Shown piece after piece: positions 9,028 through 62,787 of a stretch of 64,000 bases of DNA. A model generated the notes under the pieces. That model saw only the letters and a list, made by a program, of their open reading frames with translations. It was not told the origin of the DNA and did no database searches. The DNA lies in assembly GCA_009780345.1 (NCBI GenBank), contig WRAG01000001.1:7267-71266 (forward strand). The letters run 5' to 3'. The stretch comes from Oscillospiraceae bacterium (GTDB lineage: Bacteria; Bacillota; Clostridia; Monoglobales; WRAG01). Each line of letters starts with the position of its first letter. Positions within the stretch are counted from its first letter, which is position 1. The position numbers were made by a program, and so were the translations under genes.

Positions 9028-9792
9028 ATGCTTTTAGCAATTGACGTTGGAAATACAAATATTGTCGCGGGAATTTTTCAAAACGACAAATTAATCGCAA
9101 ATTTTCGCATGGCAACCGATAAGCAGAAGTCGTCAGACGAAATCGGCTTGCTTATGACGCAGCTTCTCTCTCTTGAGGGAATCGACAAATCCAACATAGA
9201 AGATATTATAATATCGTCGGTTGTGCCGCCGGTTATGTATTCGCTGACCAACGCTTGCCGCCGATATATCGGGCGAGAGCCGCTTATCGTCGGGCAGGAT
9301 ATTTTACCCGATATCAACGTGAGATACGATAATCCGAAAGAAGTCGGCGCGGACAGAATCGTAAACGCGGTTGCCGCGCGGGCGAAGTACGACTCGCCCC
9401 TCGTTATCGTCGATTTCGGAACGGCGACAACGTTTTGCGCTATCGACAAGAACGGCGACTATCTCGGTGGCGTGATTGCGTCGGGAATAAAAATTTCGAT
9501 GGATGCGCTTTTCGAAAAAGCCGCGAAGTTGCCACGGATTGAGATAGTTAAGCCAAATAAAGTGATTGGAACGAACACGGTCGAGTCTATGCAATCGGGC
9601 GCGGTTTACGGATATGTAGGGCAGGTTGAGTATATCGTCGGGCGGATTAAGGAAGAACTCGACGCGCCGAATAGTAAGGTTGTCGCCACAGGCGGACTTG
9701 CGGCGCTAATCGCCCAACATACCGACAGCATTGATTTTGTGGATAGACTACTGACGCTTGAGGGGCTGAGGATGATATATTCGGGGGTTTAG
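9028..9792 (+). CDS. coaX: Type III pantothenate kinase
   Basis: MLLAIDVGNTNIVAGIF...GADRIVNAVAA...VDFGTATTF, CoaX motifs. Extended -10 TGgTATAAT at 9000-9008 argues against the upstream GTG of the ORF track. Confidence 0.9.
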   Translation: MLLAIDVGNTNIVAGIFQNDKLIANFRMATDKQKSSDEIGLLMTQLLSLEGIDKSNIEDIIISSVVPPVMYSLTNACRRYIGREPLIVGQDILPDINVRYDNPKEVGADRIVNAVAARAKYDSPLVIVDFGTATTFCAIDKNGDYLGGVIASGIKISMDALFEKAAKLPRIEIVKPNKVIGTNTVESMQSGAVYGYVGQVEYIVGRIKEELDAPNSKVVATGGLAALIAQHTDSIDFVDRLLTLEGLRMIYSGV

Positions 9793-9819
9793 GGCGGATG
9801 CCCTAAAAAGGAGAAAATC

Positions 9820-12463: not shown

Positions 12464-13276
12464 ATGAAAGTATACGCCTTAGTCGGCGCGAGCGGAACCG
12501 GCAAAAGTCATCACAGCATGTTTGCCGCCAAGCAATTGGGCGCGGAATGTATGATTGATGACGGTCTTCTAATCGCCAATCATCAAATTGTCGCGGGAAA
12601 ATCCGCCAAACAAGAGCCGACCAAGATGGCGTCGGTTCGCCGCGCTATATTTTCAAGTCAAACTCACCGTGACGAAGTGCGCCTTGCGATTGAAAAACAT
12701 AAATTTCGGTCTATTCTAATTATCGGAACGTCGGACAGAATGGTTTCGCAAATCGCGAGCGGTATCGGAGTCGGCGAAATTGACGAAATCATCCGAATCG
12801 AAGATATCCGAACCGAAGATGAGATCGAGCGGGCAAAAAATATTAGGTTTAAGCAGGGAAAGCACGTAATTCCCGTTCCAACTTTCGAGGTGAAGAAGCA
12901 TTTTTCGGGATATTTTATGCACCCGCTCGCGATGTTGAGCAAAAACAAATCTACTTATCGAGTGGAAGAAAAAACGGTAATGCGCCCGACTTACAGCTAT
13001 CTCGGGCATTTCGAGATCTCGGATAAGGCGATTATCGACATCTGCGCGTATAAAGCGCGGCAGAATTCGGAAATTACACGAGTTTTAAGGGTTGGCGTCC
13101 ATATGCTCAGCGATAAAAGCGTCGTGATTGACGTTGACGTTGTAATGAAATTTCCGAATAAGATTCATATTGTGGGGCGAGAGCTTGCGGATGTAATCCG
13201 CACCGATGTGGAGGAGCATACTTCCATCAATGTTAGAAAAATCAGAATAAACGTAAAGGGACTGCGGTTTGAGTGA
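12464..13276 (+). CDS. P-loop NTPase fused to a C-terminal Asp23/Gls24-like domain
   Basis: N-terminal Walker A VGASGTGKSH. The C-terminal ~110 aa follow the Asp23 pattern (ISDKAIIDICAYKA...VIDVDVVMKFPNKIHIVGRELADVIRTDVEEHTSINVRKIRINVKGL). Start set at ATG 12464 after AAAGGAGC. Confidence 0.8.
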   Translation: MKVYALVGASGTGKSHHSMFAAKQLGAECMIDDGLLIANHQIVAGKSAKQEPTKMASVRRAIFSSQTHRDEVRLAIEKHKFRSILIIGTSDRMVSQIASGIGVGEIDEIIRIEDIRTEDEIERAKNIRFKQGKHVIPVPTFEVKKHFSGYFMHPLAMLSKNKSTYRVEEKTVMRPTYSYLGHFEISDKAIIDICAYKARQNSEITRVLRVGVHMLSDKSVVIDVDVVMKFPNKIHIVGRELADVIRTDVEEHTSINVRKIRINVKGLRFE

Positions 13277-13390
13277 AATCACGCAATCTTCCGCCGAAAC
13301 TTCGCCTGCAAAAAGTCCTCAACGTATAGCCCATACGCCTGCGGCTTTTCGAGGCTCGTTTCGACGAAATATTACGCAATTTGACACAAA
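13268..13390 (+). repeat. Family A repeat (A1 core), forward
   Basis: TTTGAGTGAAATCACGCAAT...GTCCTCAACGTATAGCCCATACGCCTGCGG...TTACGCAATTTGACACAAA. The left end contains the upstream gene's last codons and its TGA stop. Confidence 0.9.
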
Positions 13391-14278: not shown

Positions 14279-14383
14279 ATTTGCATCAAATTGCGTGAGG
14301 TTTTGCAGAAAACGCACGGGAGCGTGTATATAAGATACCCGACCGGGCGTTTTCGGCGAAAGATTGCGTAATTTCATGCAAAT
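14279..14383 (-). repeat. Family A repeat (A2 core), inverted
   Basis: TTTGCATCAAATTGCGTGAGG...GGGAGCGTGTATATAAGATACCCGACC...TTGCGTAATTTCATGCAAA. Confidence 0.85.
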
Positions 14384-15256: not shown

Positions 15257-15826
15257 ATGTTTTTGAGCCGCCACGGCGGCGGGTTTTTAGGGCTTTGCCC
15301 TAAAAACCCATTTGTTCGGGTCAGACCCAGAAGCTTGTGTCCTGCCGGACGGGCGGTAAGGGCTCTGCCCTTACCAATCCCGGTCGCCTATGGACGCAAA
15401 CGCCAAAAAGCGGCGATTTGCGCCAAAGCCGGCGACGATAAAAGCATTGGTTAGCGAACCGCGTTCGCGGAAAGACTAGCGAGATATAGCACTGTTTCGA
15501 TCGAGCATGCGGCTTTTGCCGCCGTAGTTATTTGACTAATACCGTATATGTTTGCACTATTTTAGCGGCGCGTTTACAATAGCGCGAAAGCGCGTGTGCG
15601 CTGCAAGTTTGGTAAAACTTTTTAAAGTTTTTTGGGGATTGACAAGGGTTTCAATAAACCCTTGTCGTCCTGCCCTGACAAGGGCAAAAAGCTGCAGAGC
15701 CTCGCTCTGAAAAAGGGTTTTTAGGGCATTCGCCCTAAAAAAACCCGCGCCCATTGGGCGCAAGAATTTTGATAAAACTTTTTCCAAAAGTTTTTAGGTT
15801 TTTAGGGCAAGGCCCTAAAAAAGGAG
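15257..15826 (-). repeat. Family C long composite palindromic repeat, copy C3 (inverted relative to C2/C4)
   Basis: Reverse complement is colinear with C2. Hairpins include GGGTTTTTAGGGCTTTGCCCTAAAAACCC, GACAAGGGTTTCAATAAACCCTTGTC and GCGCCCATTGGGCGC. Ends in GCCCTAAAAAAGGAGG just before ATG 15834. Confidence 0.85.
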
Positions 15827-25310: not shown

Positions 25311-25611
25311 TTTGCGTGAAATCACGCAATCTTCCGCCGAAACTTCACCCACGAAAAATCCTCAACGTACCATTTGTACGCCTGCGGAAACAAGACGCCA
25401 TTAAAAGTTTTGTGAAACAAAACATACATAAATGGCGTTTCAACGGCGGTTTTTGCCGTTCTTTTTCGGGGCTCGTTTCGGCGGAATCTGGGAGAGTTGT
25501 CAAAAACTTGTTTTTGCTAACAACTCCCCTGTGAAAACTGCCCAAGAGAGCAAGGCGATTTTTGCCGCCGCTTAATTGGCTGCAGTTGACCACCACGCAA
25601 TTTGACGCAAA
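25311..25611 (+). repeat. Family A repeat, composite (A1 core with nested insertions including module F)
   Basis: Starts TTTGCGTGAAATCACGCAAT directly after the thyA TAG and ends CACGCAATTTGACGCAAA before the folA RBS. The interior carries GGGAGAGTTGTCAAAAACTTGTTTTTGCTAACAACTCCCC, which is also seen at 40426 and 54117. Confidence 0.85.
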
Positions 25612-25628: not shown

Positions 25629-26099
25629 ATGAATCTAATTGTGGCAGTAGACAAAAACTGGGGAATCGGTTGCGATAACAAGCTTCTCGCCCATATTCCC
25701 GAGGATATGAAATTTTTTCGCGTAATGACGACTGACAAAACCGTCGTTATGGGGCGGAAGACGTTTGATAGCTTGCCGAACGGAGCGTTGCCAAATCGGA
25801 ATAACATTGTATTATCCCGAGATGAAAATTTCAAGGCAGATAACGTTAGAGTTCATAACTCCATAGGTATTGGCGATGATAGCGTTTTCGTAATCGGCGG
25901 TGAATCAATTTATAAGCAATATCTTCCGCTTTGCACGCGTGCATACGTCACTAAAATTGACGCCGAATTTGAGGCGGATCGATATATGGAAAATTTGGAT
26001 AAAGATCCTGACTGGGCGGTTGAAAGTTCAAAAAAAATGTCTACGCAAAGCGGCATAAACATTGAGTTTGTTACGTATGTGAATACTAAATTGGTTTAG
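25629..26099 (+). CDS. folA: Dihydrofolate reductase
   Basis: MNLIVAVDKNWGIG...MGRKTFDSLP...LPNRNNIVLSR. Located downstream of thyA. Confidence 0.93.
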   Translation: MNLIVAVDKNWGIGCDNKLLAHIPEDMKFFRVMTTDKTVVMGRKTFDSLPNGALPNRNNIVLSRDENFKADNVRVHNSIGIGDDSVFVIGGESIYKQYLPLCTRAYVTKIDAEFEADRYMENLDKDPDWAVESSKKMSTQSGINIEFVTYVNTKLV

Positions 26100-26569
26100 T
26101 CGGCTTTCATTGCTTGCGCAAAGTGCGCGATTTTATCGTTATCGATAGTGTCTTTATAATCGGTTTGCTTCGTTACTAACTTGTATATAAATCGCTCGGC
26201 ACCGCCGACCTTTTTCGGATCAAATATTCCGCCCGCGAAAAACTTCGCCTTGGCAGCTTGCAAAAGTTGCGGCGGGAAGTTTTGGTTGAACACTTCGGCT
26301 TCCTTTTCGGTTTCAAATCCGGAAAGAAATAAGCCCACTCTTTTTTTGCATAATTCATCGGCGTTTTGAGAGATGAAAGTTTTCGCTTCCTTGCGAATTG
26401 CGCCCGCGTAAATCGAACTTCCGATAATTACGCAGTCAAACTGCGACAACTTTGGAATGTCTTTTTGCTTTAGGTCACAAACAACTGCAACCTCTATGTT
26501 TTTTGCGATACGCCGCGCGATTTCTTCCGCGGCGCCGTATTTTGACGCATAAAGAATCAAAGTTTTCAT
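26096..26569 (-). CDS. Flavodoxin-domain protein
   Basis: MKTLILYASKYGAAEEIARRIA..., flavodoxin-like fold signature. Confidence 0.8.
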   Translation of the reverse strand: MKTLILYASKYGAAEEIARRIAKNIEVAVVCDLKQKDIPKLSQFDCVIIGSSIYAGAIRKEAKTFISQNADELCKKRVGLFLSGFETEKEAEVFNQNFPPQLLQAAKAKFFAGGIFDPKKVGGAERFIYKLVTKQTDYKDTIDNDKIAHFAQAMKAD

Positions 26570-26592: not shown

Positions 26593-27696
26593 CTAAAAAT
26601 TAATTACCTTATAACGATAGCGTACGTTTAGCACCAGCCCGACCGCCATCATATTTGCCAGCATCGATGAGCCGCCATAGCTTATAAACGGCAATGGAAC
26701 GCCGGTTACCGGCATTAGACCGATTGCCATTCCGATACTTTGAATAGTTTGGAACATCAACATTCCTGAAACTCCGAGGGCGATATATTTGCCTAGGGAG
26801 TTTTTTGCTTTATTCGCGATATAAAGGCAGCGCAAGGTTATTCCGAGTAGAAGAAGTAACACAACCATGCTTCCGATAAATCCGAATTCTTCGCTTATTA
26901 CCGAAAATATGAAGTCGTTATGCCGTTCGGGCAGGAAGCCGAATTGGGTGGAACCGCGGAGGTAGCCTCTGCCGAATATTTGTCCCGAGCCGACCGCGAT
27001 TCTTGACTGCAACACTTGAAATCCGGCGCCGGCGGGGTCAAGGTAAGGGTTGAAAAAACTTATAATACGCAACTGTTGATAATCTCGCAACACAAAGAAC
27101 CATATTATCGGAAGCGCCGCAACAAAGCCGCCGATTGCTGCCAAAATATACTTATAATTTATCCCCGCGAACCAAATCATCATCAACGCGATAGAAACAA
27201 ATACAAGGGTCGTTCCCAAATCCGGTTGCATTAGTGTAAGTGCGATGATCGGTGCGGCGTGCAATGCTAAAAACCCTATATTTTTCGGCTTGTTGATATC
27301 CTCATCTATCAAAGATAGATGCTTCGCGAATGTGATGATAAATCCGATTTTTACAAATTCGGTCGGCTGGAATCCGATAGGGCCGATTCGAATCCATCTT
27401 TGTCCGCCTAGTTGCGCGTGCCCGATTTGGGGAATCAGAACTAGAATTAAAAGTAGCAAACACAAACCGTATATAGCGTAAGATAAGCCGCACAAATATT
27501 CGTAATCTATTTTGATAATAACAGCTATTACCACAAGTCCGACGACAAGTGAGACAATTTGGGTTATTACAAATTGCGATGGATTTATAAACGTGCTTAC
27601 GGCGCTTGAAATTGCAATAATACCTATGGTTCCGGCGATCAGAACCATAGATAATAGAAAGAAATCAATATTCTTAAAGAGTTTTCGGTTTAACAT
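26593..27696 (-). CDS. FtsW/RodA/SpoVE family peptidoglycan glycosyltransferase
   Basis: Polytopic membrane protein with the C-terminal motif PVTGVPLPFISYGGSS. Start set at MLNRKLF (27696) after GGAGAAGA. Confidence 0.9.
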   Translation of the reverse strand: MLNRKLFKNIDFFLLSMVLIAGTIGIIAISSAVSTFINPSQFVITQIVSLVVGLVVIAVIIKIDYEYLCGLSYAIYGLCLLLLILVLIPQIGHAQLGGQRWIRIGPIGFQPTEFVKIGFIITFAKHLSLIDEDINKPKNIGFLALHAAPIIALTLMQPDLGTTLVFVSIALMMIWFAGINYKYILAAIGGFVAALPIIWFFVLRDYQQLRIISFFNPYLDPAGAGFQVLQSRIAVGSGQIFGRGYLRGSTQFGFLPERHNDFIFSVISEEFGFIGSMVVLLLLLGITLRCLYIANKAKNSLGKYIALGVSGMLMFQTIQSIGMAIGLMPVTGVPLPFISYGGSSMLANMMAVGLVLNVRYRYKVINF

Positions 27697-27710
27697 AGTA
27701 TCTTCTCCAG

Positions 27711-27740
27711 CTTGCGTGAAATCACGCAATTTGACGCAAG
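27711..27740 (+). repeat. Minimal family A unit (both ends, no core)
   Basis: CTTGCGTGAAATCACGCAATTTGACGCAAG is the left end joined directly to the right end. Confidence 0.75.
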
Positions 27741-27744
27741 CTTA

Positions 27745-28389
27745 CTAAATTTTTTTATATGAGATAGCGACACCGTCGCCTAATGGTAATATTGAAGTGT
27801 CTAGTTTATCATTATCCATAATTTCCGTAATATATTCGCGCAAATTGCGGATAATTGTACATTTTCGTTTTACCCAAAGTTCGTCGGTCGCGACCATTCC
27901 TTGATAAAGTATATTATCGCTTATCAAAATTCCGCCGTTTCGCAAAATTCTGATGCAATGCGGCAGAAATTGAAGATATTGCCCTTTCGCGGCGTCCATA
28001 AAGATTAAATCGAAACTGCTATCCGAAAACTCGGATAAAACATCCTTCGCGTCGCCGGTTATAACTTCAATTTGGTTATCTAACTTCGCGGCGGAGATAT
28101 TTTCCCGGGCAATAGTTGCCATACTTTCGGATTTTTCTATCGATTTAATGTCAATTTCGCTTGACAGTTCAGCAATGGCGATTGCGGAATATCCGATTGC
28201 CGTTCCGATTTCGAGAATTTTTTTAGGTTTTGCGATGGAACATATCACTTCGATAAAACGTAACGTTTCGGGCTGTGAAATTGGAACATTGTTCTTCTCG
28301 GCGTAAGTTTCAAGTTCCTTTAGAAGTCCGGTTTTCTGCGGCGTGCTTTTTTGAATATATTCATTAATATAAGGATAGTTGATATTCAT
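27745..28389 (-). CDS. Class I SAM-dependent O-methyltransferase (YrrM/caffeoyl-CoA OMT-like)
   Basis: ILEIGTAIGYSA SAM motif and DLIFMDAAKGQY. Start at MNINYPY (28389) overlaps the mltG stop by 1 nt. Confidence 0.85.
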   Translation of the reverse strand: MNINYPYINEYIQKSTPQKTGLLKELETYAEKNNVPISQPETLRFIEVICSIAKPKKILEIGTAIGYSAIAIAELSSEIDIKSIEKSESMATIARENISAAKLDNQIEVITGDAKDVLSEFSDSSFDLIFMDAAKGQYLQFLPHCIRILRNGGILISDNILYQGMVATDELWVKRKCTIIRNLREYITEIMDNDKLDTSILPLGDGVAISYKKI

Positions 28390-37057: not shown

Positions 37058-37180
37058 TTTGCGTGAAATTACGCAATATTCCGTCGAAACATCGCCCACA
37101 GAAAATCCTCAACGTATAACCCATACGTCTGCGGTTTTCCGGGACTCGTTTCGACGAAATATTACGCAATTTGACGCAAA
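37058..37180 (+). repeat. Family A repeat (A1 core), forward, in the rpsJ leader
   Basis: TTTGCGTGAAATTACGCAAT...AATCCTCAACGTATAACCCATACGTCTGCGG...TTACGCAATTTGACGCAAA. Confidence 0.9.
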
Positions 37181-37210
37181 ATTAAGAATTTTATTAAGGA
37201 GGGCTATTTT

Positions 37211-37519
37211 ATGGCGGCAGAAAAAATTAGAATCAGACTTAAATCTTACGATCACAATTTGGTTGATCAATCGGCGGCGAAGATCGTGGATACCGCAACG
37301 AGAACGGGGGCGAAAATTTCGGGTCCTATTCCGTTGCCGACGAAGAAGGAGATTATCACTATCCTTCGCGCGGTGCATAAGTACAAAGACAGCCGTGAGC
37401 AGTTTGAACTGAGAACGCACAAACGTTTGATTGATGTTTTGGGTCCGACGGCGAAAACGATTGACGCGCTGAAGAACTTGGATTTACCGGCGGGCGTTGA
37501 TATTGAAATTAAGATATAA
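37211..37519 (+). CDS. rpsJ: 30S ribosomal protein S10
   Basis: [18 protein letters not shown]...GPIPLPT...[14 protein letters not shown]-like sequence. Confidence 0.98.
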
Positions 37520-37521
37520 AA

Positions 37522-37644
37522 TTTGCGTGAAATCACGCAATCTTTCGTCGAAACTGCAATGACGAAAAATCCTCAACGTATCACATATACGCCTGCGGTT
37601 TTTCGCATCTTGTTTCAACGAAATCTCACGCAATTTGACGCAAA
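37522..37644 (+). repeat. Family A repeat (A1 core), forward
   Basis: Starts 2 nt after the rpsJ TAA. Central hairpin CGTAT-CACAT-ATACG. Ends CACGCAATTTGACGCAAA. Confidence 0.9.
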
Positions 37645-37716
37645 TTTGGGTATATGTGTTGCGTGAAGGTCATGTCGGTGGAATGTGCCGACCAATAACC
37701 GAAAGGAGAAGTATTA

Positions 37717-38349
37717 ATGAAGAAAGCGATTTTAGGTAAGAAAATCGGAATGACGCAGATATTTGGCGAAAACGGCGTGGTAATTCCGATCACTGTTGTT
37801 GAAGCGGGGCCGTGTCCTATCGTTCAAAAGAAAGATATGGAAAAAGACGGTTACGAAAGCGTGCAAATGGCTTTTATGGACAAAAAAGAAAAGCATACCA
37901 CTAAGCCGTTGCAAGGACATTACAAAAAAGCGGGTGTCGGGCTTAAAAGATTTCTAAAAGAATTTAAACTTGACAATTACGCGGATTTGAATGTCGGAGA
38001 CGAAATTAAAGTTGATATATTCGAGGACGGAGAAGTTATTGACGTTACCGGAACCAGCAAAGGTCACGGATTCCAGGGTACGGTTAAGCGTCACGGAACG
38101 CACAGAGGTCCGATGAGTCACGGTTCGCATTATCACAGAGGACCGGGTTCAATGGGCGGATGTTCTACTCCGTCGAGAGTATTTAAAGGTAAAAGGTTGC
38201 CCGGACACATGGGTGTGGATACCGTTACCATTCAAAATTTAGAACTTGTTAAAGTTGATACGGAACGGAACTTGCTTCTTATTAAAGGCGCGGTTCCGGG
38301 ACCTAAGGGCGGACTGGTTGTTGTTCGGAACGCGGTTAAAGGAGGATAA
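37717..38349 (+). CDS. rplC: 50S ribosomal protein L3
   Basis: [12 protein letters not shown]...[11 protein letters not shown]. Confidence 0.98.
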
Positions 38350-38595
38350 TTTGCGTGAAATCACGCAATCTTTCGCAGAAACTGCGAGGACAAAAAGTCC
38401 TCGACGTATAACTCATACGCCTGTGGCTTTTATATGGAGGGCTCCCAAAAAACGAGAGCCATTGCTCGAAATTTTTTGGGAAAGAGGAGCCGCCGCACGC
38501 AAGGCGAAGCTTTTGCCACGATTTTTGTGGCAAAACGAGCAACGAGTGCGAGTGGGGACGATGTTTCGACGAAATCTCACGTAATTTGACGCAAA
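38350..38595 (+). repeat. Family A repeat, composite (A1 core with a nested ~120-bp module E)
   Basis: Starts immediately after the rplC TAA. The insert GGAGGGCTCCCAAAAAACGAG...TTTTTTGGGAAAGAGGAGCC... (from 38437) is related to modules at 45697, 48040, 52305 and 56175. Ends TCACGTAATTTGACGCAAA. Confidence 0.88.
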
Positions 38596-38620
38596 TTTAG
38601 TTTGGAAGGGAGTAATAAAA

Positions 38621-39244
38621 ATGCCTAAAGTACCATTAATGGATAAGACAGGTAAGAACATTGGAGATATTGAGCTTAGCGAAAACGTGTTCGGAGTTGA
38701 CGTTAACACTGATGTAATGCACGAAGTTGTTGTAAACTATCTTGCGAATCAGCGTCAAGGAACACAAAGCACGAAAACGCGCGCGGAAGTTCGAGGCGGC
38801 GGTAAGAAGCCGTGGAGACAAAAAGGTACGGGTCGTGCTCGTCACGGTAGTACTCGTTCTCCGATATGGACAGGCGGTGGCGTAACGTTTGCGCCGAAAC
38901 CGAGAGATTACAGTTATACGGTTAACAAAAAAGTGAAGCGTCTTGCTTTGAAATCGGCGTTGTCAAGTAAAGTTTTGGCTGAGAACGTTATCGTGCTTGA
39001 CGGATTCAAGATGGACGAGATTAAGACGAAAGAAGTTGCTACGGTTTTGAAAAACATGGGAATCGTGGGGAAAGCGTTGATCGTTCTTCCCGAAAACGAC
39101 CAAACAGTCGTGCGCAGCGCGAGAAATATTCGCGGCGTTGACGCTACATTCGTTGGACAGATCAATACTTATGAAGTTTTGAACCATACGAAATGTATCA
39201 TTCTAAAAGACGCGGTGGCTAAGCTTGAGGAGGTGTACGCATAA
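38621..39244 (+). CDS. rplD: 50S ribosomal protein L4
   Basis: [30 protein letters not shown]. Confidence 0.98.
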
Positions 39245-39531
39245 TGAAAACGGCTTATGACATTATTAGAAAGCCTATCATTACCGAGCAGAGTATGGAA
39301 GGCGTTCAAGACAAGAAGTACACGTTCGAAGTTGCGGTTGGCGCAAACAAGATTGAAATTAAAAAGGCGATTGAAGAAATATTTAAGGTGAAAGTTGACA
39401 AAGTTACCACCATGAATATGAAAGGCAAGCCGAAAAGAATGGGAGTTCACGCAGGATTTCGTCCGGATTGGAAGAAAGCAATGGTGAAGTTGACTCCTGA
39501 TAGTAAATCTATCGAATTATTTGAGGGTTAA
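39244..39531 (+). CDS. rplW: 50S ribosomal protein L23
   Basis: [12 protein letters not shown]...[17 protein letters not shown]. Start overlaps the rplD stop. Confidence 0.97.
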
Positions 39532-39557
39532 TATCGAGTTGAAGGGAGAAAGAGCTA

Positions 39558-40391
39558 ATGGCTATTAAAAAGTATAGACCTATTACGCCTTCGTTGCGTC
39601 AGATGACATGTTCGGCTTTTGCTGAGATTGATAAAGTAAAGCCGGAGAAGTCGCTTCTTAGAAAACTTAAGAAGAATGCAGGACGAAACGCGCATGGTAA
39701 AATTACGGTTCGTCACCGCGGAGGCGGCGCGAAACGTAAGTACAGAATTATTGATTTTAAACGTAACAAAGATGGAATGAAAGCAACTGTTTTATCAATC
39801 GAGTATGATCCGAACAGAACGTCTAACATTGCGCTTTTGGAATATCCGGATGGTGAAAGAACATACATCATCGCGCCGGTTGGACTTAAAAAAGGTCATA
39901 TCATTGAGTCGGGCGTGCAAGCCGACATCTTGCCGGGTAACGCGAAAGAGCTTAAAGACATTCCGGTTGGTACGATGATTTACAACATCGAGTTGAAGCC
40001 CGGTAAAGGCGGACAACTTGTTAGATCGGCGGGGAACACGGCGCAGCTTATGGCTCTTGAGGGACTTTACGCGCAAATCAGACTTCCGTCGGGCGAGATG
40101 AGATTGGTTCGAAACAACTGCCGCGCGACAATCGGGCAGGTTGGAAACACCGATCACGAGAACATAAACATCGGTAAAGCGGGACGTAAACGACATATGG
40201 GATGGCGTCCTACCGTTCGTGGTGTTGTTATGAATCCGTGTGATCACCCTCACGGTGGTGGTGAAGGTAAGTCGCCTATCGGACGGCCGAGCCCTGTTAC
40301 TCCTTGGGGTAAGCCGGCGTTGGGATATAAAACGCGGAATAAGAAGAAGCATTCTAGCAAGTATATAGTTAAAGGCAGAAATTCTCGATAA
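39558..40391 (+). CDS. rplB: 50S ribosomal protein L2
   Basis: [14 protein letters not shown]...[18 protein letters not shown]. Confidence 0.98.
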
Positions 40392-40403
40392 TTATTTTCG
40401 TCA

Positions 40404-40792
40404 AATTGGCACATTTTGAATTTTTGGGAGAGTTGTCGAAAACTTGTTTTCGCTAACAGCTCCCCTGCAAGGCTTTCCAAAGAGCATGAGTCGTTTGTTG
40501 ACGAAGTGCGATTTGCTGAAAGCTACTGCCGCCCACTTGCGTACTTTGTGTACGCGGCGTGGCAGGGCGCGCAAAAGCGGCGCGGCTTTAAATGAGACTT
40601 GGCTTTGCTGATTTTTGCAAAGTCATAGCCGAATTATGCAGGGGCGTAACATTTTGTAAAACAAAATGCACAGCCATCTGCCAAAATTCAAACTGCACGC
40701 AATTTGACGAAAATATGAGATTTGGTTTCACGCAATTTGACGCAAATTTTAGGAATTTGACAAAAATGTGGAATTTGGGTTTATGCAATTGA
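40404..40792 (+). repeat. Family B repeat, large composite (B core with nested modules F and G, plus extra A-type right-end half-sites)
   Basis: AATTGGCACATTTTGAATTTTT, then module F (GGGAGAGTTGTCGAAAAC...), CCCACTTGCGTACTTTGTGTACGCGGCGTGG, then module G (TTTAAATGAGACTTGGC...), AAAATTCAAACTGCACGCAATTTGACGAAAA, TCACGCAATTTGACGCAAA. Confidence 0.88.
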
Positions 40793-40829
40793 GAAGTATA
40801 GAAGTATAATGGAAAGAGAGGTAAACTTT

Positions 40830-41111
40830 ATGGGACGTAGTGTTAAAAAAGGACCTTTTATTGAAGAAAGTTTGATGAAAAAGATAGTTGCGCAAAATGC
40901 GGCGGGGACGAAGAACGTTATCAAGTCTTGGTCGCGCGCGTCTACTATATTCCCTGAAATGGTTGGACATACAATCGCGATTCATGACGGACGTAAGCAT
41001 GTTCCTGTTTATGTGAGCGAGGATATGGTTGGACATAAACTTGGTGAGTTCGCGCCGACCAGAACATATCGTGGTCATTCGGGATCGAAAACGTCAAACA
41101 CCGGTAAATAA
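40830..41111 (+). CDS. rpsS: 30S ribosomal protein S19
   Basis: [15 protein letters not shown]...[15 protein letters not shown]. Start at ATG 40830 after GAGAGG. Confidence 0.97.
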
Positions 41112-41115
41112 CCGG

Positions 41116-41238
41116 TTTGCGTGAAATCACGCAATCTTTCGCCGAAACTTCACCTGCGAAAAATCCTCAACGTATAACCCATACGCCTGCGGTTTTTCGA
41201 GACTTGTTTCGCCGAAATCTTACGCAATTTGACGCAAA
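41116..41238 (+). repeat. Family A repeat (A1 core), forward, near-consensus copy
   Basis: TTTGCGTGAAATCACGCAATCTTTCGCCGAAAC...AATCCTCAACGTATAACCCATACGCCTGCGG...GTTTCGCCGAAATCTTACGCAATTTGACGCAAA. Confidence 0.92.
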
Positions 41239-41289
41239 CCGTGTTTGTGTCTTGAATAAAATGTATTTTACAAAATAGAGGTGAAAGTT

Positions 41290-41628
41290 ATGGAAGCTAA
41301 GGCAAAAGTTACACATATTCGTATTGCGCCGCGAAAAGTTCGAATTGTTATCGACCTTATTCGCAACAAGCCGGTCGGGCACGCCATTGCGATATTGAAA
41401 AATACGCCGAAAGTGGCAAGTCCTGTTGTGGAAAAGCTTTTGAATTCCGCAATCGCTAACGCGCAAAACAATCATAACATGAATGTAGACAACTTGTACA
41501 TTTCACAAGTTTATGCAGATCAAGGGCCGACCTTGAAGCGGATTATTCCGCGGGCGAAAGGTATGGCTAACAGAATCCAAAAGAAGACCAGCCATATTAC
41601 GTTGGTGCTTGCGGAAAGGGAGGTTTAA
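41290..41628 (+). CDS. rplV: 50S ribosomal protein L22
   Basis: [25 protein letters not shown]. Confidence 0.97.
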
Positions 41629-41631
41629 AGC

Positions 41632-42429
41632 ATGGGACAAAAAGTGCATCCTCACGGACTTAGAGTCGGAGTTATCAAAGGCTGGGACTCACGCTGGATT
41701 GCGTCGGACAGCGACTTTGGCGATAATATCGTGGAAGATTACAATATTCGCAAAATGCTGAAGAAAAAGCTTTACGCTGCCGGTGTTGCTAAGATTGAAA
41801 TTGAAAAAGCGGCGGGGAAAATCCGTTTGTTTATTCATGCGGCGAAACCGGGTATCATTATCGGTAAAGGCGGAACCGAGATTGAAAAAATCAAGCAATC
41901 GGTTGAAAAGCTTACTGGCAAAAGCGTTGCTTTGAACATCGTTGATGTTAAAGTTGCGGATATGAACGCGCAACTTGTTGCGGAAAATATCGCGGCGCAG
42001 CTTGAAAAACGTATTTCGTTCCGTAAAGCTATGAAGCAATCTATGGGACGTACCATGAAAATGGGCGCGAGAGGGATTAAAACGCAAGTTTCAGGACGTT
42101 TGGGCGGCGCGGAAATCGCGAGATCTGAGCATTATCACGAAGGAACTATTCCGCTTCAAACTTTGCGAGCGGATATTGACTATGGATTCGCGGAAGCGGA
42201 TACAACTTACGGAAAAATCGGCGTTAAAGTTTGGATTTACAAAGGCGAAATATTGCCGGAGGGCAAAAGAGGCGTGGATTTGAATAAACCTATCCCGCAA
42301 CCGACCGCTCCGCCAAGACCGCCGAGACCTGCTCGTCCTGCGGGAGATCGTCCTGCACGACCTGCCGGAAACAGACCTGCGGGCAATCGTCCGCCGAGAA
42401 AACCCTCCACGGAAGGAGGAAACAGATAA
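41632..42429 (+). CDS. rpsC: 30S ribosomal protein S3 (with Pro/Arg-rich C-terminal tail)
   Basis: [13 protein letters not shown]... KH domain. Tail is [46 protein letters not shown]. Confidence 0.97.
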
Positions 42430-43049
42430 TGTTATTACCAAAAAGAGTGAAACGCAGAAGAGTTATGCGTGGCAAAATGAAAGGCAAAGCGCAACGCGGC
42501 ACGAAAATCGCTTACGGTGATTTCGGTCTTGTGGCGACTACGCCGGCTTGGGTTAGAAGTAACCAAATAGAAGCGGCGCGTATCGCGATGACTCGTTATA
42601 TCAAGCGTGGCGGTAAAGTTTGGATTAAAATTTTCCCGGATAAGCCGGTTACCGAAAAGCCTGCTGAAACCCGTATGGGTAGCGGTAAAGGTTCGCCTGA
42701 GTATTGGGTAGCGGTTGTTAAACCCGGACGCGTGCTTTTTGAGATTTCAGGGGTGCCGGAAGACACTGCTCGCGAAGCTATGAGACGCGGAATGCACAAA
42801 CTTCCGCTTAAATGTAAGTTTGTCACCCGCGCCGAGCAAGAGAAAGAAGCGGAACTTGAAAAAGCGGCGGAGGCGGCAAAAGCGGCTCCTAAAAAGCCTG
42901 CCGAAACTAAAGCTAAAAAAGCGGCGGCTCCTAAAAAAGCCGCGAAAAAAGAAGAAGCGGTTGAAGTTGCCGAAATTAAAGTTGATGTTGCCGAAGAGGT
43001 TGTTGAAAAAGCGGCTGACGTTGGCGGTAAGGAGGGCGGCGAAGAATGA
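42429..43049 (+). CDS. rplP: 50S ribosomal protein L16 (with ~65-aa Lys/Ala/Glu-rich C-terminal extension)
   Basis: [19 protein letters not shown]...[24 protein letters not shown]. At 206 aa it is longer than the usual ~140-145 aa. Confidence 0.95.
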
Positions 43050-43252
43050 AAATAAGAGATATTCGTGATATGACATCAAATGAGTTGACCGGAAAATTGA
43101 AAGAGTTAAAAGAAGAAATGTTTAATCTTCGGTTCCAAAACGCGACGAATCAATTGGAAAATCCGATGAGAATTGCTGTCGTTAGGAAAGATATTGCGAA
43201 GGTTATGACTGTACTAAAAGAGCAGGAGCTCGGACTAAGGGTGGAGGGATAA
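43046..43252 (+). CDS. rpmC: 50S ribosomal protein L29
   Basis: [32 protein letters not shown] overlap with rplP. Confidence 0.97.
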
Positions 43253-43256
43253 TATT

Positions 43257-43523
43257 ATGACTGAAACTATGCAAAGAAATTATCGTAAAACCCGTACGGG
43301 CAAGGTTGTAAGCGATAAAATGGACAAAACCATCGTTGTTGCTATTGAAAACCGGGTAAAGCACGGACTTTACGGTAAAATCGTAAAAAGAACATACAAA
43401 CTTAAAGCCCATGACGAGCAAAATACTTGCGGCGTAGGTGATACGGTTAAAGTTATGGAATGCCGTCCGTTATCTCGGGATAAAAGATGGCGTTTGGTTG
43501 AAGTAGTAGAAAAAGCGAAGTAA
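43257..43523 (+). CDS. rpsQ: 30S ribosomal protein S17
   Basis: [22 protein letters not shown]...[29 protein letters not shown]. Confidence 0.97.
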
Positions 43524-43524
43524 A

Positions 43525-43645
43525 CTTGTAAATTTTCCGCTATTTTTTCCGAAACTGCAAGACAGAAAATGCTCAACGTATAACCCATACGCCTGTGCTT
43601 TTCCGCTTTTGTTTCGAAAATCTAGCAAAAAATTTACTGCGTTTA
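43525..43645 (+). repeat. Family A repeat (A1 core), decayed ends
   Basis: Core AATGCTCAACGTATAACCCATACGCCTGTGC is retained. The ends have degenerated (CTTGTAAATTTTCCGCTA / TAGCAAAAAATTTACTGCG). Confidence 0.7.
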
Positions 43646-43674
43646 TTCATTGAAGGATAGGAGGCTGGAACGTT

Positions 43675-44043
43675 ATGGTACAGCAACAGTCAATTTTAAA
43701 GATTGCCGATAATAGCGGAGCGAAAGAAATTATGTGTATCCGTGTTTTGGGCGGTTCGGTTCGACGATATGGCAATGTTGGCGACGTTATTGTTGCGTCG
43801 GTTAAGAAAGCCGCGCCGGGCGGAGGAGTTAAAAAAGGTGAAGTTATCAGAGCCGTTATCGTGCGCACCGTTAAAGGTGTTAAGCGAAAAGATGGTTCGG
43901 TTATTAAATTTGACGAAAACGCGGCGGTTATTATCAGAGAAGATAAAAACCCGAGAGGTACGCGTATATTCGGACCTGTGGCACGTGAGTTAAGAGACAA
44001 GGAGTATATGAAAATTATATCCTTGGCGCCTGAGGTTTTATAA
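43675..44043 (+). CDS. rplN: 50S ribosomal protein L14
   Basis: [28 protein letters not shown]. Confidence 0.98.
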
Positions 44044-44045
44044 AA

Positions 44046-44244
44046 TTTTGGCACATTTCGGATTTTTCGCCCACTTGCGTACTTTATGTACGCGGCGTGG
44101 CAGGGCACACAAAAGCGGTGTGGCTTTAAATGAGACTTGACTTTGTTGGATTTTGCAAAGTCATAGCCGAATTATGCAGGGGCGTAACATTTTGTAAAAC
44201 AAAATGCACAGCCATCTGCCAAAATCCAAACTGTACTCAAAATT
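44046..44244 (+). repeat. Family B repeat with nested module G
   Basis: TTTTGGCACATTTCGGATTTTTCGCCCACTTGCGTACTTTATGTACGCGGCGTGG, then module G (near-identical to 40583-40682), then AAAATCCAAACTGTACTCAAAAT. Confidence 0.88.
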
Positions 44245-44279
44245 TTATAAAACAAATTAGTGGTTTAGGAGGAAAAAAC

Positions 44280-44609
44280 ATGGCTATAGCAAAGATGCAT
44301 GTTAAAAGCGGGGACAATGTTATTGTTCTCTCGGGCAAGGATAAAGGCAAAAAAGGCAAAGTTCTTGCGGTTATGCCGGAAAAACGCATGGTTATTGTTG
44401 AAGGCGTTAGTGTGGCAAGCAAGCACAAAAAGCCTCGCAAACAAGGTGAGGTTGGCGGAATCATTAAACAAGAAACGCCGATTTACGCTTGCAAAGTTAT
44501 GAATATTTGTTCTAAATGCTCTTCGCCGGCGAGAGTCGGACGCAAAATCCTGAACGACGGAGAACACGTTCGATATTGTAAGAAGTGCGGAGAAACTTTC
44601 AGTAAGTAA
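44280..44609 (+). CDS. rplX: 50S ribosomal protein L24
   Basis: MHVKSGDNVIVLSGKDKGKKGKVL KOW motif. Start at ATG 44280 after AGGAGG. The ORF-track extension lies in the repeat. Confidence 0.96.
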   Translation: MAIAKMHVKSGDNVIVLSGKDKGKKGKVLAVMPEKRMVIVEGVSVASKHKKPRKQGEVGGIIKQETPIYACKVMNICSKCSSPARVGRKILNDGEHVRYCKKCGETFSK

Positions 44610-44628
44610 GACGCATCTGAAATTTTAG

Positions 44629-44729
44629 TTTGTGTCAAATTGCGTGAGATTTCGGCGAAAACGCAAGGAGCGTGTATACAGATACCCGACGAAGCGGTTT
44701 CGGCGGAAGGTCGCGTAATTTCACGCAAA
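44629..44729 (-). repeat. Family A repeat (A2 core), inverted
   Basis: TTTGTGTCAAATTGCGTGAGAT...GGAGCGTGTATACAGATACCCGAC...CGCGTAATTTCACGCAAA. Confidence 0.88.
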
Positions 44730-44756
44730 CCCTATAATAAAGAGGTGAATTGAACA

Positions 44757-45293
44757 ATGAGATTGCAAGAGAAATATAAAAGCGAAGTTGCGCCGGCGAT
44801 AATGAAAAAATTTGGATATAAAAGCGTTATGCAAATTCCGAAGCTTGAAAAAGTCGTTATCAACATGGGCGTAGGGGACGCGAAAGATAATGCTAAAGCA
44901 ATTGAAAGCGCCGTTGCGGACTTGGCGGCAATTACCGGACAAAAGCCTGTTATCACTAGGGCGAAAAAGTCGGTTGCGACGTTTAAAGTTCGTGAAGGCA
45001 TGAACATTGGTTGCAAAGTTACTTTGCGCGGAGAGATGATGTACGATTTTGTGCAACGGCTGTTTAACGCTGCTTTGCCGCGCGTGCGTGACTTCCGCGG
45101 AATCAGCGCGGACGCTTTTGACGGACGCGGTAACTATTCTATGGGAATTAAAGAGCAGTTGATTTTCCCGGAGATATCTTATGATAAGATTGATAAAATC
45201 AGAGGTATGGATATTATATTCGTTACCACAGCTAATACGGACGAAGAGGCGAAAGAGTTGTTAACTCTTATGGGAGCACCGTTTAAGAGCTAA
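44757..45293 (+). CDS. rplE: 50S ribosomal protein L5
   Basis: [40 protein letters not shown]. Confidence 0.98.
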
Positions 45294-45302
45294 TTTATTT
45301 TT

Positions 45303-45405
45303 AATTGGCACATTTTGAATTTTTCGCCCCCTTGCGTACCTATGTACGCGGCAGGGCAAGGCGCGCAAAAGCCGCGCGGCGCCAAAATCCAAACTGCGCT
45401 CAATT
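45303..45405 (+). repeat. Family B repeat, short form, forward
   Basis: AATTGGCACATTTTGAATTTTTCGCCCCCTTGCGTACCTATGTACGCGGCAGGG...GCGCGCAAAAGCCGCGCGGCGCCAAAATCCAAACTGCGCTCAATT. Confidence 0.88.
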
Positions 45406-45463
45406 AAAAATAAATTATGAAAATTATGTTTTTAATTAGCAAGGAAGGAGTGGTTGTTAGACT

Positions 45464-45649
45464 ATGGCAAAATTAGCGATGAAATTAAAGCAGCAAAGAC
45501 CGCAAAAATATTCTACGCGTGAGTACAATCGCTGCAAAATTTGCGGCAGACCGCACGCGTATTTGAGAAAGTTCGGAATATGCCGTATATGTTTTAGAGA
45601 ACTTGCGTATCGCGGGTATATACCCGGCGTTAAAAAAGCAAGCTGGTAA
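45464..45649 (+). CDS. rpsN: 30S ribosomal protein S14, short zinc-ribbon (type Z) form
   Basis: 61 aa. [23 protein letters not shown]. Confidence 0.97.
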
Positions 45650-45881
45650 TTTGCGTGAAACTACGCACATTTTGGATTTTTCGCTCCCTTGCGTGCAAGG
45701 GCTCCCGCAAAGTCGGTTTGTGACTTTGTGGGAAAAAGGAGCAACAGCGCAATATGCGAAATTTTCGGACGGTTTTTGTCCGAAAACGAGTAAGGTGGAG
45801 CTTGTTGTGACGGCGGCGGGACACAGCGCGCCCAAAATCGGCGCGGCATCAAAATCCAAACTGCACGCAGTTTAACACAAA
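45650..45881 (+). repeat. Long family B variant framed by family A-type ends (B ends plus module E core)
   Basis: Starts directly after the rpsN TAA with TTTGCGTGAAACTACGCA fused to CATTTTGGATTTTT. The core is ...CAAGGGCTCCCGCAAAG...GGGAAAAAGGAGCAAC... It ends AAAATCCAAACTGCACGCAGTTTAACACAAA. Confidence 0.88.
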
Positions 45882-45946
45882 TTAAATTATGGAGGCAAGT
45901 GGCTAATCGAAAAGTCAAACTGCCTTTTAGAAGGAGGAAACTATAA

Positions 45947-46345
45947 ATGCAAATAACAGATCCAATTGCGGATATGCTTACCAGGATACGGAACGCAAAC
46001 ACGGAGAGACACGAAAAAGTAAGTATTCCTGCATCGAACATGAAAAAATCGATTGCGAATATCCTTTTGAAAGAAGGATATATCAAAAATGTTGAAACTG
46101 CTGACGACGGCGGACAAGGTGTTATCAAACTTACCTTGAAATACGGCGCGGATAAGCAAAAAGTTTTGACGGGCTTGAAAAGAGTTAGCAAACCGGGTCT
46201 TAGAGTTTACGCGGCGAAAGATGAGTTGCCGCGCGTTCTTAAAGGACTTGGAATCGCTATTATATCTACATCTAAAGGGATTATGACTGATAAAGAAGCG
46301 AGAAAAGAGAATGTTGGCGGAGAAGTATTAGCTTTCATTTGGTAG
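45947..46345 (+). CDS. rpsH: 30S ribosomal protein S8
   Basis: [18 protein letters not shown]. Confidence 0.98.
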
Positions 46346-46352
46346 GACCAGG

Positions 46353-46545
46353 GAAATTAGATTAAAAAGTTGGGCGAATACGCAAAATTAGGTCAGATTT
46401 TGTGAAACACGAGCGTCGCTGTATAAATATACAGCAGTCGAAGTGTTTCACAAAAAACAAAAATGCAAAATCTAATGGCTTGCAAAGCAAGCCTACCCGA
46501 AATATAAATGCTTTGCATTTTTGTGGTGTGACCAATTTTGAGGAT
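46353..46545. repeat. Structured intergenic element (A2-like hairpin core plus conserved block D)
   Basis: Hairpin GTGAAACACGAGCGTCGCTGTATAAATATACAGCAGTCGAAGTGTTTCAC, hairpin GGCTTGCAAAGCAAGCC, and the 35-nt block AAATGCTTTGCATTTTTGTGGTGTGACCAATTTTG (46506-46540), which is identical to 56400-56434. Confidence 0.75.
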
Positions 46546-46571
46546 TCGTAATATAAGGAGGATAAGAAATT

Positions 46572-47117
46572 ATGTCCAGGATAGGTAGAAAACCTATTGA
46601 AGTACCGGCGGGCGTTGATGTTACTATTGGCGCGGGTAATGAAATTACCACAAAAGGGCCGCTTGGAACTTTAAATATGACAATGCATACCGATATGGTT
46701 ATCAAAAAAGACGGGAATGTAATCACGGTTGAACGACCAAGCGAGAACAAAATGCACAAATCGTTGCATGGCTTGACTCGTACATTGGTTTCGAACATGG
46801 TGGAAGGCGTTTCCGCAGGGTACAAAAAAGAACTTGAAATTAACGGCGTAGGTTACAGAGCGGCGTTACAAGGTAGCACGCTTGTTTTGAACTTGGGATA
46901 TTCACATCCGGTTGAGATGGAAGCGCCCGAAGGAATTAAAATCGAAGTGCCTAGCAATACCCAAATTATTATTTCGGGTATTAACAAACAGATGGTTGGC
47001 GAGTTCGCTGCGAAAGTCAGAGAAAAACGCCCGCCTGAGCCTTACAAAGGTAAGGGAATAAAATATACAACTGAGAGAATTAGACGTAAAGAAGGAAAGG
47101 CAGGTGCGAAGAAATGA
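46572..47117 (+). CDS. rplF: 50S ribosomal protein L6
   Basis: [17 protein letters not shown]. Confidence 0.98.
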
Positions 47118-47476
47118 TTAAAAAGCAGAGCAGTAATATATCGCGCCTTGCGCGGCATCAAAGAGTTCGCAAAAAAATCAGCGGAACGCCTGAATGTCCC
47201 AGACTTTGCGTTTTCAGAAGCTTGTCTCACATTTATGCGCAAGTGATTGACGATGTAAGCGGCAAAACGCTTGTTTCCGCGTCTACATTGGATGCTGATT
47301 TAAAAGGCAGCTATGGCGGCAACAAAGACGCGGCGAAAAAAGTGGGATTAAGTATAGCGAAAAAGGCAACCGACGCGGGAATCAAAGATGTTGTGTTTGA
47401 CCGCGGCGGATATGTATATCATGGGCGGGTTGCTGAATTAGCGGCCGGCGCGCGCGAAGGAGGTTTGAATTTCTAA
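47114..47476 (+). CDS. rplR: 50S ribosomal protein L18
   Basis: [34 protein letters not shown]. Confidence 0.97.
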
Positions 47477-47994
47477 TGGCTGAAAAAGGTGAAAGAACCA
47501 GAAAACAGGAGCGCGTTGACGCTTCGGTGCTTGATATAAAAGAAAAAGTGGTATCTCTTAACCGCGTTGCGAAGGTTGTTAAAGGTGGACGAACTTTTAG
47601 GTTCAGCGCGCTTGTGGTTGTTGGCGACGAGAACGGACATGTGGGATTCGGAAGCGGAAAGGCCGCTGAAATTCCGGAGGCGATTCGCAAAGGGATTGAA
47701 GACGCGAAGAAAAACATGATTACCGTGCCGATTGTGAACACTACTATACCTCACGAGGTTATTGGCGTTTACGGCGCGGGCAAAGTTCTTCTTAAACCGG
47801 CGGCGGAAGGTACCGGCGTTATCGCCGGCGGCGCGGCGCGTGCGGTACTTGAGCTTAGCGGAATTCGCGATATTCGTACGAAATGTTTGCGCAGTAATAA
47901 TCCGCGCAACGTTGTCGCGGCGACTATCGAAGGATTGGCGAGTTTGAAAAGTTTGGAAGAAGTTGAAAAGCTTAGAGGTATCAAGTTATCATAA
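47476..47994 (+). CDS. rpsE: 30S ribosomal protein S5
   Basis: [27 protein letters not shown]. Confidence 0.98.
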
Positions 47995-50444: not shown

Positions 50445-50567
50445 TTTGCGTGAAATCACGCAATCTTTTGTCGAAATTACGTGGTCGGAAAATCCTCAAC
50501 GTATAACCCATACGCCTGCGGTTTTCCGCCACTTATTTCAACAAAATCTCACGCGATTTGACGCAAA
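50445..50567 (+). repeat. Family A repeat (A1 core), forward
   Basis: TTTGCGTGAAATCACGCAAT...AATCCTCAACGTATAACCCATACGCCTGCGG...TCACGCGATTTGACGCAAA. Confidence 0.9.
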
Positions 50568-53093: not shown

Positions 53094-53122
53094 TTTGCGT
53101 CAAATTGTATAATTTCATGCAA
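53094..53122 (-). repeat. Minimal family A unit (both ends, no core), inverted
   Basis: TTTGCGTCAAATTGTATAATTTCATGCAAA is the mirror of the 27711 minimal unit. Confidence 0.65.
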
Positions 53123-53145
53123 ATGTTATGGAAGGAGGAGAATTT

Positions 53146-54342: not shown

Positions 54343-54464
54343 TTTGCGTCAAATTGCGTGAGATTTCGTTGAAACAAGAGTCGGAAAACCGCAGGCGTAC
54401 ATCAAGTACGTTGAGGATTTTGCGGCTCGCAGGTTCGGCGAAAGGTTGCGTGATTTCACGCAAA
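54343..54464 (-). repeat. Family A repeat (A1 core), inverted
   Basis: TTTGCGTCAAATTGCGTGAGAT...CCGCAGGCGTACATCAAGTACGTTGAGGATT...TTGCGTGATTTCACGCAAA. Confidence 0.9.
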
Positions 54465-62684: not shown

Positions 62685-62787
62685 TTTGCGTGAAATTACG
62701 CAATCTTCCGCCGAAAACGCTCGTTCGGGTATCATTTATACACGCTCCCTCCCGTTTTCGCCGAAATATCACGCAATTTGCCGCAAA
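62685..62787 (+). repeat. Family A repeat (A2 core), forward
   Basis: TTTGCGTGAAATTACGCAAT...CGTTCGGGTATCATTTATACACGCTCCC...TCACGCAATTTGCCGCAAA. Confidence 0.88.

Follow-up and report, generated by a model that had tools for sequence, protein, structure and literature searches.

Thirty-base-pair units in an uncultured Oscillospiraceae lineage are probably core-less derivatives of full-length foldback repeats

The window, i.e. the whole 64,000-nucleotide stretch of DNA analysed here, contains two units of 30 bp that are probably core-less derivatives of full-length family A elements, and not empty docking sites. The members of family A are intergenic repeats of 100-120 bp that fold back on themselves, are non-coding and resemble MITEs; they belong to an uncultured Oscillospiraceae lineage. 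A sequence-only reading of the window had put forward three origins for the units: landing pads into which cores integrate, which was its leading idea, excision footprints, or internally deleted copies. The last of these is the one we favour. An excision footprint would be the same product, and the landing pad came out as the least supported of the three, as empty sites are padless, pads are rare, and none was found for the B-type elements. The coordinates of the units, of the full-length copies and of the genes next to the first unit are collected in Table 1; sequences compared with the window are designated by L numbers.

Table 1. Minimal units, full-length and composite family A copies, and the genes flanking the first unit (positions in the window)
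Feature	Position	Strand	Remark
Minimal unit 1	27711..27740	+	antisense to flanking genes
Unit 1, left arm CTTGCGTGAAAT	27711-27722		
Unit 1, end repeat, one copy, CACGCAAT	27723-27730		last AT common with right arm
Unit 1, right arm ATTTGACGCAAG	27729-27740		
rodA (FTSW_RODA_SPOVE)	26593..27696	-	ribosome-binding (Shine-Dalgarno, SD) site GGAGAAG starts 1 nt past unit 1, in mRNA sense
O-methyltransferase gene	27745..28389	-	stop TAG at 27745-27747, 4 nt from unit 1
Minimal unit 2	53094..53123	-	decayed reverse copy, between the conserved (probable) L36-S13 leader and the SD of rpsM
A1, full, 121 bp, long foldback	37059..37179	+	reference for end anatomy
A1, full, S10-L3 spacer	37523..37643	+	
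A1, full, S19-L22 spacer	41117..41237	+	
A1, full, SecY-Adk spacer	50446..50566	+	site empty in L042, L046
A1, full	13269..13389	+	
A1, full, S11-S4 spacer	54344..54463	-	spacer empty in L043, L046
A2, full, 101 bp	62686..62786	+	left end abuts SD of opposite-strand gene
A2, full, L24-L5 spacer	44630..44728	-	
A2, full	14281..14381	-	compensatory G:C to A:T change, outer stem
Composite, A1 with nested ~95-bp module C (GGGAGAGTTGTC...)	25312..25610	+	thyA-folA junction, empty in L039
Composite A1, 244 bp, L3-L4 spacer	38351..38594	+	

The consensus of family A, drawn from 29 full-length copies, reads (nnT)TTGCGTGAAAT-YACGCAAT-CTTYCGCCGAAAC ... GTTTCGNCGAAATCT-YACGCAAT-TTGACGCAA(Ann). Apart from one conserved G/G mismatch, the outer arms are inverted repeats of each other. 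YACGCAAT is a direct repeat found at both ends of full copies, led by GAAAT on the left and by GAAATCT on the right; the direct repeats are short (8-9 nt exact, 13/15 with the GAAAT lead), and the two copies bracket an inner inverted repeat and the core, which together make a strong hairpin. Because the end repeat is a near-palindrome (ATTACGCAAT versus ATTGCGTAAT), the bottom strand of the copy at 37059 folds without an internal loop. Folding energies of A1 range from -32 to -41 kcal/mol as DNA (z -6.8 to -9.3) and reach -51 as RNA.

Family A elements are non-coding and measure 99-122 bp, with composites of up to 299 bp. In the window, 11 full-length A-type copies were found (9 of 99-121 bp and 2 composites), together with about eight B-type elements and, in the spacers S17-L14 and IF1-L36, two decayed A-like copies. 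The end motif TTGCGTSAAAT, with at most one mismatch, occurs 44 times, against 6.3 expected and a maximum of 15 in shuffles. A candidate solo core at 43530-43640 was rejected, being a decayed full copy. At gathering score no Rfam family was detected in the window, and at an E-value threshold the search returned only long-hairpin miRNA-precursor noise and a sub-threshold Alpha_RBS match. The composites of 250-300 bp arise where a ~95-bp module (GGGAGAGTTGTC...GCTAACAACTCCCC...) is nested in A1 and B elements; it is present in the window at 25475-25590, 40420-40520 and 54110-54210, as well as in L021, L031 and L042 (2669-2832), and in A1 copies it adjoins an ...AATCT junction.

The first minimal unit reads CTTGCGTGAAATCACGCAATTTGACGCAAG, and its arms match the arm consensus perfectly. 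It lies in a 48-nt spacer leading from an O-methyltransferase (OMT) gene to rodA, both on the minus strand. It occurs once in the window when up to 3 mismatches are allowed (0 expected from shuffles), and it was reproduced in L001, an independent assembly of the same organism. Its stem is 2-3 bp longer than the ends first described (AGC...GCT, 27709-27742). Two features pointed out from the sequence alone were confirmed. The hexamer TTGCGT/ACGCAA is present three times, once forward (TTGCGT at 27712) and twice inverted (ACGCAA at 27724 and 27734), and two alternative hairpins are indeed predicted. The outer stem is the minimum-free-energy fold of the DNA, with -11.7 kcal/mol as single strand (z -4.8, equalled by 0/200 shuffles), and the RNA fold of the rodA leader uses the inner TTGCGTG/CACGCAA hairpin in place of it.

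All four minimal units (those at 27712 and 53095 in the window, and those in L024 and L026) consist of a left arm, one YACGCAAT and a right arm, which amounts to a full element minus its core and one repeat copy. The description of the unit as two ends joined with no core is right in that the left and right arms are joined, but one YACGCAAT, found at both ends of full copies, stands between them. The junction is identical in the four units (28-30 bp). Their variable termini are of four different kinds, and for this reason the units look like independent events, not like a propagating minimal lineage.

Direct repeats flanking a hairpin are a classical substrate for slippage deletion (PMC4134008), and in family A the GAAAT-led YACGCAAT repeats sit at the base of the inner hairpin. 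The likeliest route to a minimal unit would be polymerase slippage across the hairpin between these direct repeats, recombination between them being the alternative; with the hairpin and one repeat copy lost, left arm, one YACGCAAT and right arm would remain. The model of Canceill and Ehrlich likewise has direct repeats at the base of an inverted repeat, of which one copy is kept while the hairpin is lost (PMC4134008); compared with that model, the repeats are short here, and slippage is deduced from sequence. A slippage product, an enzymatic excision product, and a minimal unit that had yet to receive a core with an 8-bp duplication would be identical in sequence; the junction by itself gives no direction. 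We infer slippage as the mechanism and, at each individual locus, a passage from full to minimal; among the orthologous loci compared, no locus was found with minimal and full alleles demonstrably from one insertion. The unit is presumably a remnant, with no role of its own beyond that of a stable hairpin in a transcribed spacer just upstream of the SD.

Counting minimal against filled units, a check proposed together with the landing-pad idea, was done on a non-redundant 241 kb, a small sample from several related organisms, in which 4 minimal units stood against 29 full A-type copies; minimal units make up ~10% of A-type copies and are about 7 times rarer than filled ones. Two further short variants were counted in the same 241 kb, as were 2 units made of a left end only. 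For the metagenome sample, contigs were picked with a left-end 19-mer that occurs in minimal and full copies alike; the sample is unbiased for unit type. This 19-mer matches 33 metagenome contigs, about two thirds of them with true family members (~20 further copies). Of the copies in this sample, 17 are full or composite and 2 minimal; 2 more are short in other ways, and 1 consists of a left end only. Among the incomplete copies, L010 is 41 bp long with CTTTC of the core still present, L032 has both repeat copies, separated by 6 nt, and L009 has the left end and CTT only. The breakpoints of all three differ from the minimal junction, and minimal units are rare: the sequence-only reading had itself held that rare deletions with heterogeneous breakpoints would speak against landing pads.

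Searches further afield returned no relatives of the family. In GTDB representative genomes the left-end 19-mer had 2 chance hits only, in unrelated MAGs; the left-end and right-end patterns gave only chance matches in coding sequence when run on viral contigs; and literature searches brought up nothing on this repeat family or these metagenome samples. Some of the metagenome contigs (L013 2447-2495, L015 1855-1903, L025 842-890) are unrelated and higher in GC; directly before an ORF that begins MNNLYYGDNL they carry a palindrome, TTGCGTGAAATCACGCAA, which overlaps the family left end by chance and is possibly an operator. A search for stems of at least 9 bp around YACGCA[AC] recovered only two A-type minimal units, at the background of control heptamers. 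As this search finds A-type units alone, and B-type elements have other arms, the latter are left without candidate pads.

A further shortening was found at the OMT-rodA site itself. In a relative with 97% RodA identity (89% at the nucleotide level), the site holds a 20-bp form, CTTGCGTGAAATTACGCAAG, with the same rare C:G termini as in the window. This form lacks the 10 bp TTTGACGCAA, lost between two copies of ACGCAA that are spaced 10 bp apart. The 30-bp form is ancestral to the 20-bp form, because the window 30-mer fits the family right-end consensus at 17/17 positions, and a second slip, between the two ACGCAA copies, would produce the form seen in the close relative. Further away, two relatives (about 70% identity) have a 4-nt spacer at this site, and one (73%) an unrelated repeat. 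On the other side of rodA, a flavodoxin gene (window 26096-26569) separates it from folA; it is missing in L039 (97% RodA), where rodA abuts folA.

The second minimal unit had been presented as the mirror of the first. This holds in part: its reverse complement agrees with unit 1 at 24/30 positions, and it ends at 53123, not 53122. It differs from the arm consensus at 7/28 positions, two of its three hexamers are mutated and the outermost alone is intact, and its single-stranded DNA fold reaches only -5 to -6 kcal/mol. It was reproduced in the independent assemblies L002 and L003. The L36-S13 site where it lies is minimal in the window and empty in five lineages (L042/L047, L045, L046, L048/L049 and L050/L051); in L043/L044 a full A1 of 121 bp occupies it, at the same position and in the same orientation. 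The sister of each occupied lineage is empty, and so is the closest relative of the window. Orthologous loci that are minimal in one strain and filled in another had been proposed as the sign of landing pads. Formally, L36-S13 is such a locus, but the alleles look like separate insertions and no interconversion is shown. At each of the four variable terminal positions the minimal allele has another base than the filled one (CAT..AT versus CGC..GC), and we therefore dropped L36-S13 as proof of interconversion; separate insertions into one short permissive interval are at least as likely.

Next to unit 2, a segment of ~95 nt between rpmJ (L36) and rpsM (S13), at 52985-53083 in the window (GTTATC...TTTAGCACAATTGATTA...GATATA), is kept in all relatives L042-L051. 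It is probably a ribosomal-protein leader, and had no Rfam match at gathering score.

Occupancy also varies at five more junctions, thyA-folA, SecY-Adk, S11-S4, RpoA-L17 and Adk-Map: an element is present there in the window or in one relative, and other relatives have none. No minimal unit was present in the empty orthologous sites, whether at these five junctions or in the five lineages at L36-S13. Because the empty sites hold no minimal unit, we conclude that arms and cores arrive together; relative to the empty orthologous alleles, the filled ones also carry about 6 extra terminal nt.

Within the S10-spc-alpha cluster (window 37200-56800), almost every spacer contains a foldback repeat. 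In relatives (L042, L043, L046, L048) the same junctions are 0-40 nt long, with different junctions filled in different relatives, from which it follows that elements are gained and lost very rapidly within an essential operon. The L15-SecY element (window 49018-49128) is conserved in the window, L042 and L043, and is present as the reverse complement, between the same flanks, in L048 (472-584), either by an in-place flip or by re-insertion; in 1/4 sequences two of its stem pairs are changed on both sides and still paired. At the IF1-L36 spacer, the window (52712-52868) has a reversed A2-like core and L042 (4149-4287) a B-like core, within similar outer arms TTTGTAA.AGA(A)T / A(T)TCT.TTACAAA; the spacer holds an A1-like copy with other arms in L043, and is empty in L046. 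A separate family of short GC-rich palindromes, GGTTTTTAGGGCnnnGCCCTAAAAA, was observed in the window at 568-592, 9785-9809, 15282-15306, 15716-15740, 15797-15821 and 58768-58792. These repeats sit in longer GC-rich intergenic blocks, which give rise to spurious Gly/Arg/Pro-rich ORFs.

The termini of the elements vary from copy to copy at three pairs, even within A1, yet stay complementary. Over 37 copies, the pair just outside TTGCGT..ACGCAA is complementary in all 37 (U:A 31, C:G 4, G:C 2) and the next pair outward in 35 (G:C 16, A:U 15 and some others); most third pairs are A:U or G.U, with G.T wobbles on the top strand only (GU 10, UG 0). Paired stem cells amount to 86.7%, compared with 36-42% when the structure was slid by 1-2 columns and 12-40% when slid by 3. 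Every measure of covariation except 'further pair types' beats 500/500 shuffles, and all of them beat every slid control. We could explain these copy-specific complementary termini neither by a direct target duplication nor by a fixed terminal repeat. Flanks of the type TA...TA fit three of the empty/filled comparisons and 5/37 copies; most copies, A2 especially, show none. The C/T variants of the left and right end repeats, counted by eye, are concordant in 12/26 copies, which is the chance level, and therefore carry no signature of a duplication.

The left end lies 3-9 nt (up to about 15) from an opposite-strand SD in 10/11 A2 copies, in 3/4 minimal units and in L010. The 11 A2 copies counted here are those of the window (62686-62786, 14281-14381, 44630-44728) and those in L011, L016, L017, L027, L029, L030, L033 and L038. 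In A2 cores, a TGTATAAAT-like motif is directed at the opposite-strand SD, and would be a possible outward promoter. This A2 promoter, like a promoter or terminator reading of the unit, found no support in consensus scans.

Several other explanations of the units have to be weighed. One is that two arms suffice for mobilisation, so that the 30-bp unit transposes by itself and the units of the window arrived minimal. The units do retain both complete arms and complementary termini, unit 1 has perfect arms, and the ancestral state at L36-S13 was empty, as it still is in the closest relative of the window. However, no diagnostic variants or termini are common to the four units, the minimal form is a small minority of copies, and the mismatches of unit 2 would be surprising in a recently active copy. 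We consider this account unlikely.

Hardly a better candidate is excision by an enzyme, in which a strand-specific nuclease or transposase, for example HUH/Y1-like, would cut at both YACGCAAT, remove the core with one repeat, and reseal the donor. An asymmetric motif in direct orientation at both ends of a palindromic element (YACGCAAT in A types, the looser GCAC/CACGCA in B types) would suit such an enzyme, as would the common junction of the four units and the strand bias of the third-pair wobbles. Yet no transposase or nuclease was recognised among the window ORFs, read by eye, or by Pfam on 10 of them, of which 4 matched nothing; the 64 kb and the short contigs showed no gene for a Y1 transposase or RAYT, and no autonomous partner IS with the same ends was present in the window. 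Site-specific cleavage should not give breakpoints as heterogeneous as those of L010, L032 and L009, and no free cores were seen outside arms. The ends also speak against it: at the right end there is no separate hairpin, and the terminal inverted repeats are long, unlike the ends of the IS200/IS605 type. The likeness to recognition sites of single-strand transposases suggested in the sequence-only reading was not supported: the ends are inverted repeats of 12-15 bp, with a local hairpin on the left only and two direct ACGCAA on the right, and on the target side the empty orthologous sites contain neither YACGCAAT nor arms.

A bolder version, which we hold to be improbable, would make YACGCAAT at the hairpin top the cleavage and target site of a strand-specific, HUH-like enzyme, core plus one YACGCAAT the mobile part, which is peeled out and pasted into loops of this kind, and the 30-bp unit both a resealed donor and a re-usable target. 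If true, it would mean that hairpin-loop-targeting single-strand transposition with interchangeable cores exists in Clostridia, with the YACGCAAT loop as the defined target of a novel type of single-strand mobile element.

The landing pad proper, a 30-bp ancestral hairpin into whose YACGCAAT loop the cores A1, A2 and B would enter with an 8-bp duplication, appears more improbable still. Arithmetically it works, a filled element being a minimal unit plus core and YACGCAAT, and since module C is found nested inside other elements of this genome, an element already in place could in principle receive an insertion. L36-S13 exhibits the three states, empty, minimal and filled, and IF1-L36 similar arms around different cores. 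Against this, no pad was present in the empty orthologous sites at any polymorphic junction examined, the arms come with the cores and with the extra terminal nucleotides, and pads are several times rarer than filled copies, with none for B-type arms. Moreover, the concordance of the repeat variants is at chance, the 'duplication' flanking B-type elements is only GCAC, and L010 contains core bases.

Finally, an independent cis-acting element, i.e. a regulatory hairpin or operator (terminator, S4/alpha-operon leader helix, or transcription-factor palindrome), is very improbable: both units of the window do lie 14-23 nt upstream of a start codon, beside the SD, and Alpha_RBS (RF00140) has a sub-threshold match over unit 2, but this match scores 27.3 bits against a gathering score of 38 and is driven by the SD and coding sequence, since L042, which lacks the unit and has a different upstream hairpin, scores 28.3, while there are 0 terminator-like sites in 27400-28000, the hairpin in mRNA sense being followed by GCUGGAGAAG with no T tract, and the unit is missing in the five lineages at L36-S13 and in distant relatives at OMT-rodA.

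We therefore keep internal deletion of full-length copies as the preferred reading, and compared family A with known systems. It has terminal inverted repeats (TTTGCGTGAAAT / ATTTGACGCAAA) and folds back over its whole length, it is small, non-coding and dispersed in many copies, and it shows insertion polymorphism at six orthologous sites; it fits a MITE in all but two respects, the target duplication, which is not clear, and the partner transposase, of which none is known. REPINs propagate in the longer form, a hairpin doublet, and their singlets are remnants left by decay. REP/REPIN sequences (mobilised with RAYT, Y1) and family A are both short, hairpin-forming intergenic repeats, and by analogy doublet and singlet would correspond to full and minimal forms; in contrast, family A has no 5' tetranucleotide of the GTAG type, its ends are not inverted copies of one hairpin, and no RAYT gene was seen here in the 64 kb and the fragments. 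Its termini, TTTGCGT...ACGCAAA without GTTRRRY, are not those of integron attC sites, whose core sites read RYYYAAC ... GTTRRRY. PATEs, derived from IS200/IS605, resemble family A by a motif in direct orientation at both ends, a left-end hairpin and no consistent target duplication; they differ in having no terminal inverted repeats and subterminal hairpins at both ends, whereas family A is a foldback whose right end is hairpinless.

In its behaviour family A is like MITE-type repeats such as ERIC and Correia. The enterobacterial ERIC/IRU sequences have deletion and insertion variants, and their size classes differ by internal segments. As in family A, they are imperfect palindromes in transcribed spacers, with size classes set by internal segments; they differ in sequence and host phylum, and family A is far denser, with a faster turnover between close relatives. 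One account of RU-1, RU-2 and RU-3 describes them as imperfect palindromes of ~100-170 bp in transcribed intergenic regions (PMC2759123). The Correia elements (CREE/nemis) of Neisseria include an 'internal deletion' class of ~105 bp, versus ~150 bp for the complete form (PMC2649163). CREE and family A are both non-coding, measure ~100-150 bp and have terminal inverted repeats as well as a conserved core; both are intergenic, often co-transcribed, and present or absent according to the strain. There is no sequence similarity between them, and the TA duplication typical of CREE is only occasionally compatible with the data here. In family A, moreover, the deletion derivative loses all but the arms, and the terminal 3 bp vary and yet remain complementary.

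Taken alone, the 30-bp unit is a minor object. It shows how a foldback repeat decays, from the full element to 30 bp and from there to 20 bp, by repeat-mediated loss. The family to which it belongs is undescribed and restricted to one uncultured lineage, where it fills nearly every spacer of the ribosomal-protein cluster, with an occupancy that differs between relatives at 89-96% nucleotide identity, and where it keeps its stem closed by means of copy-specific complementary termini.
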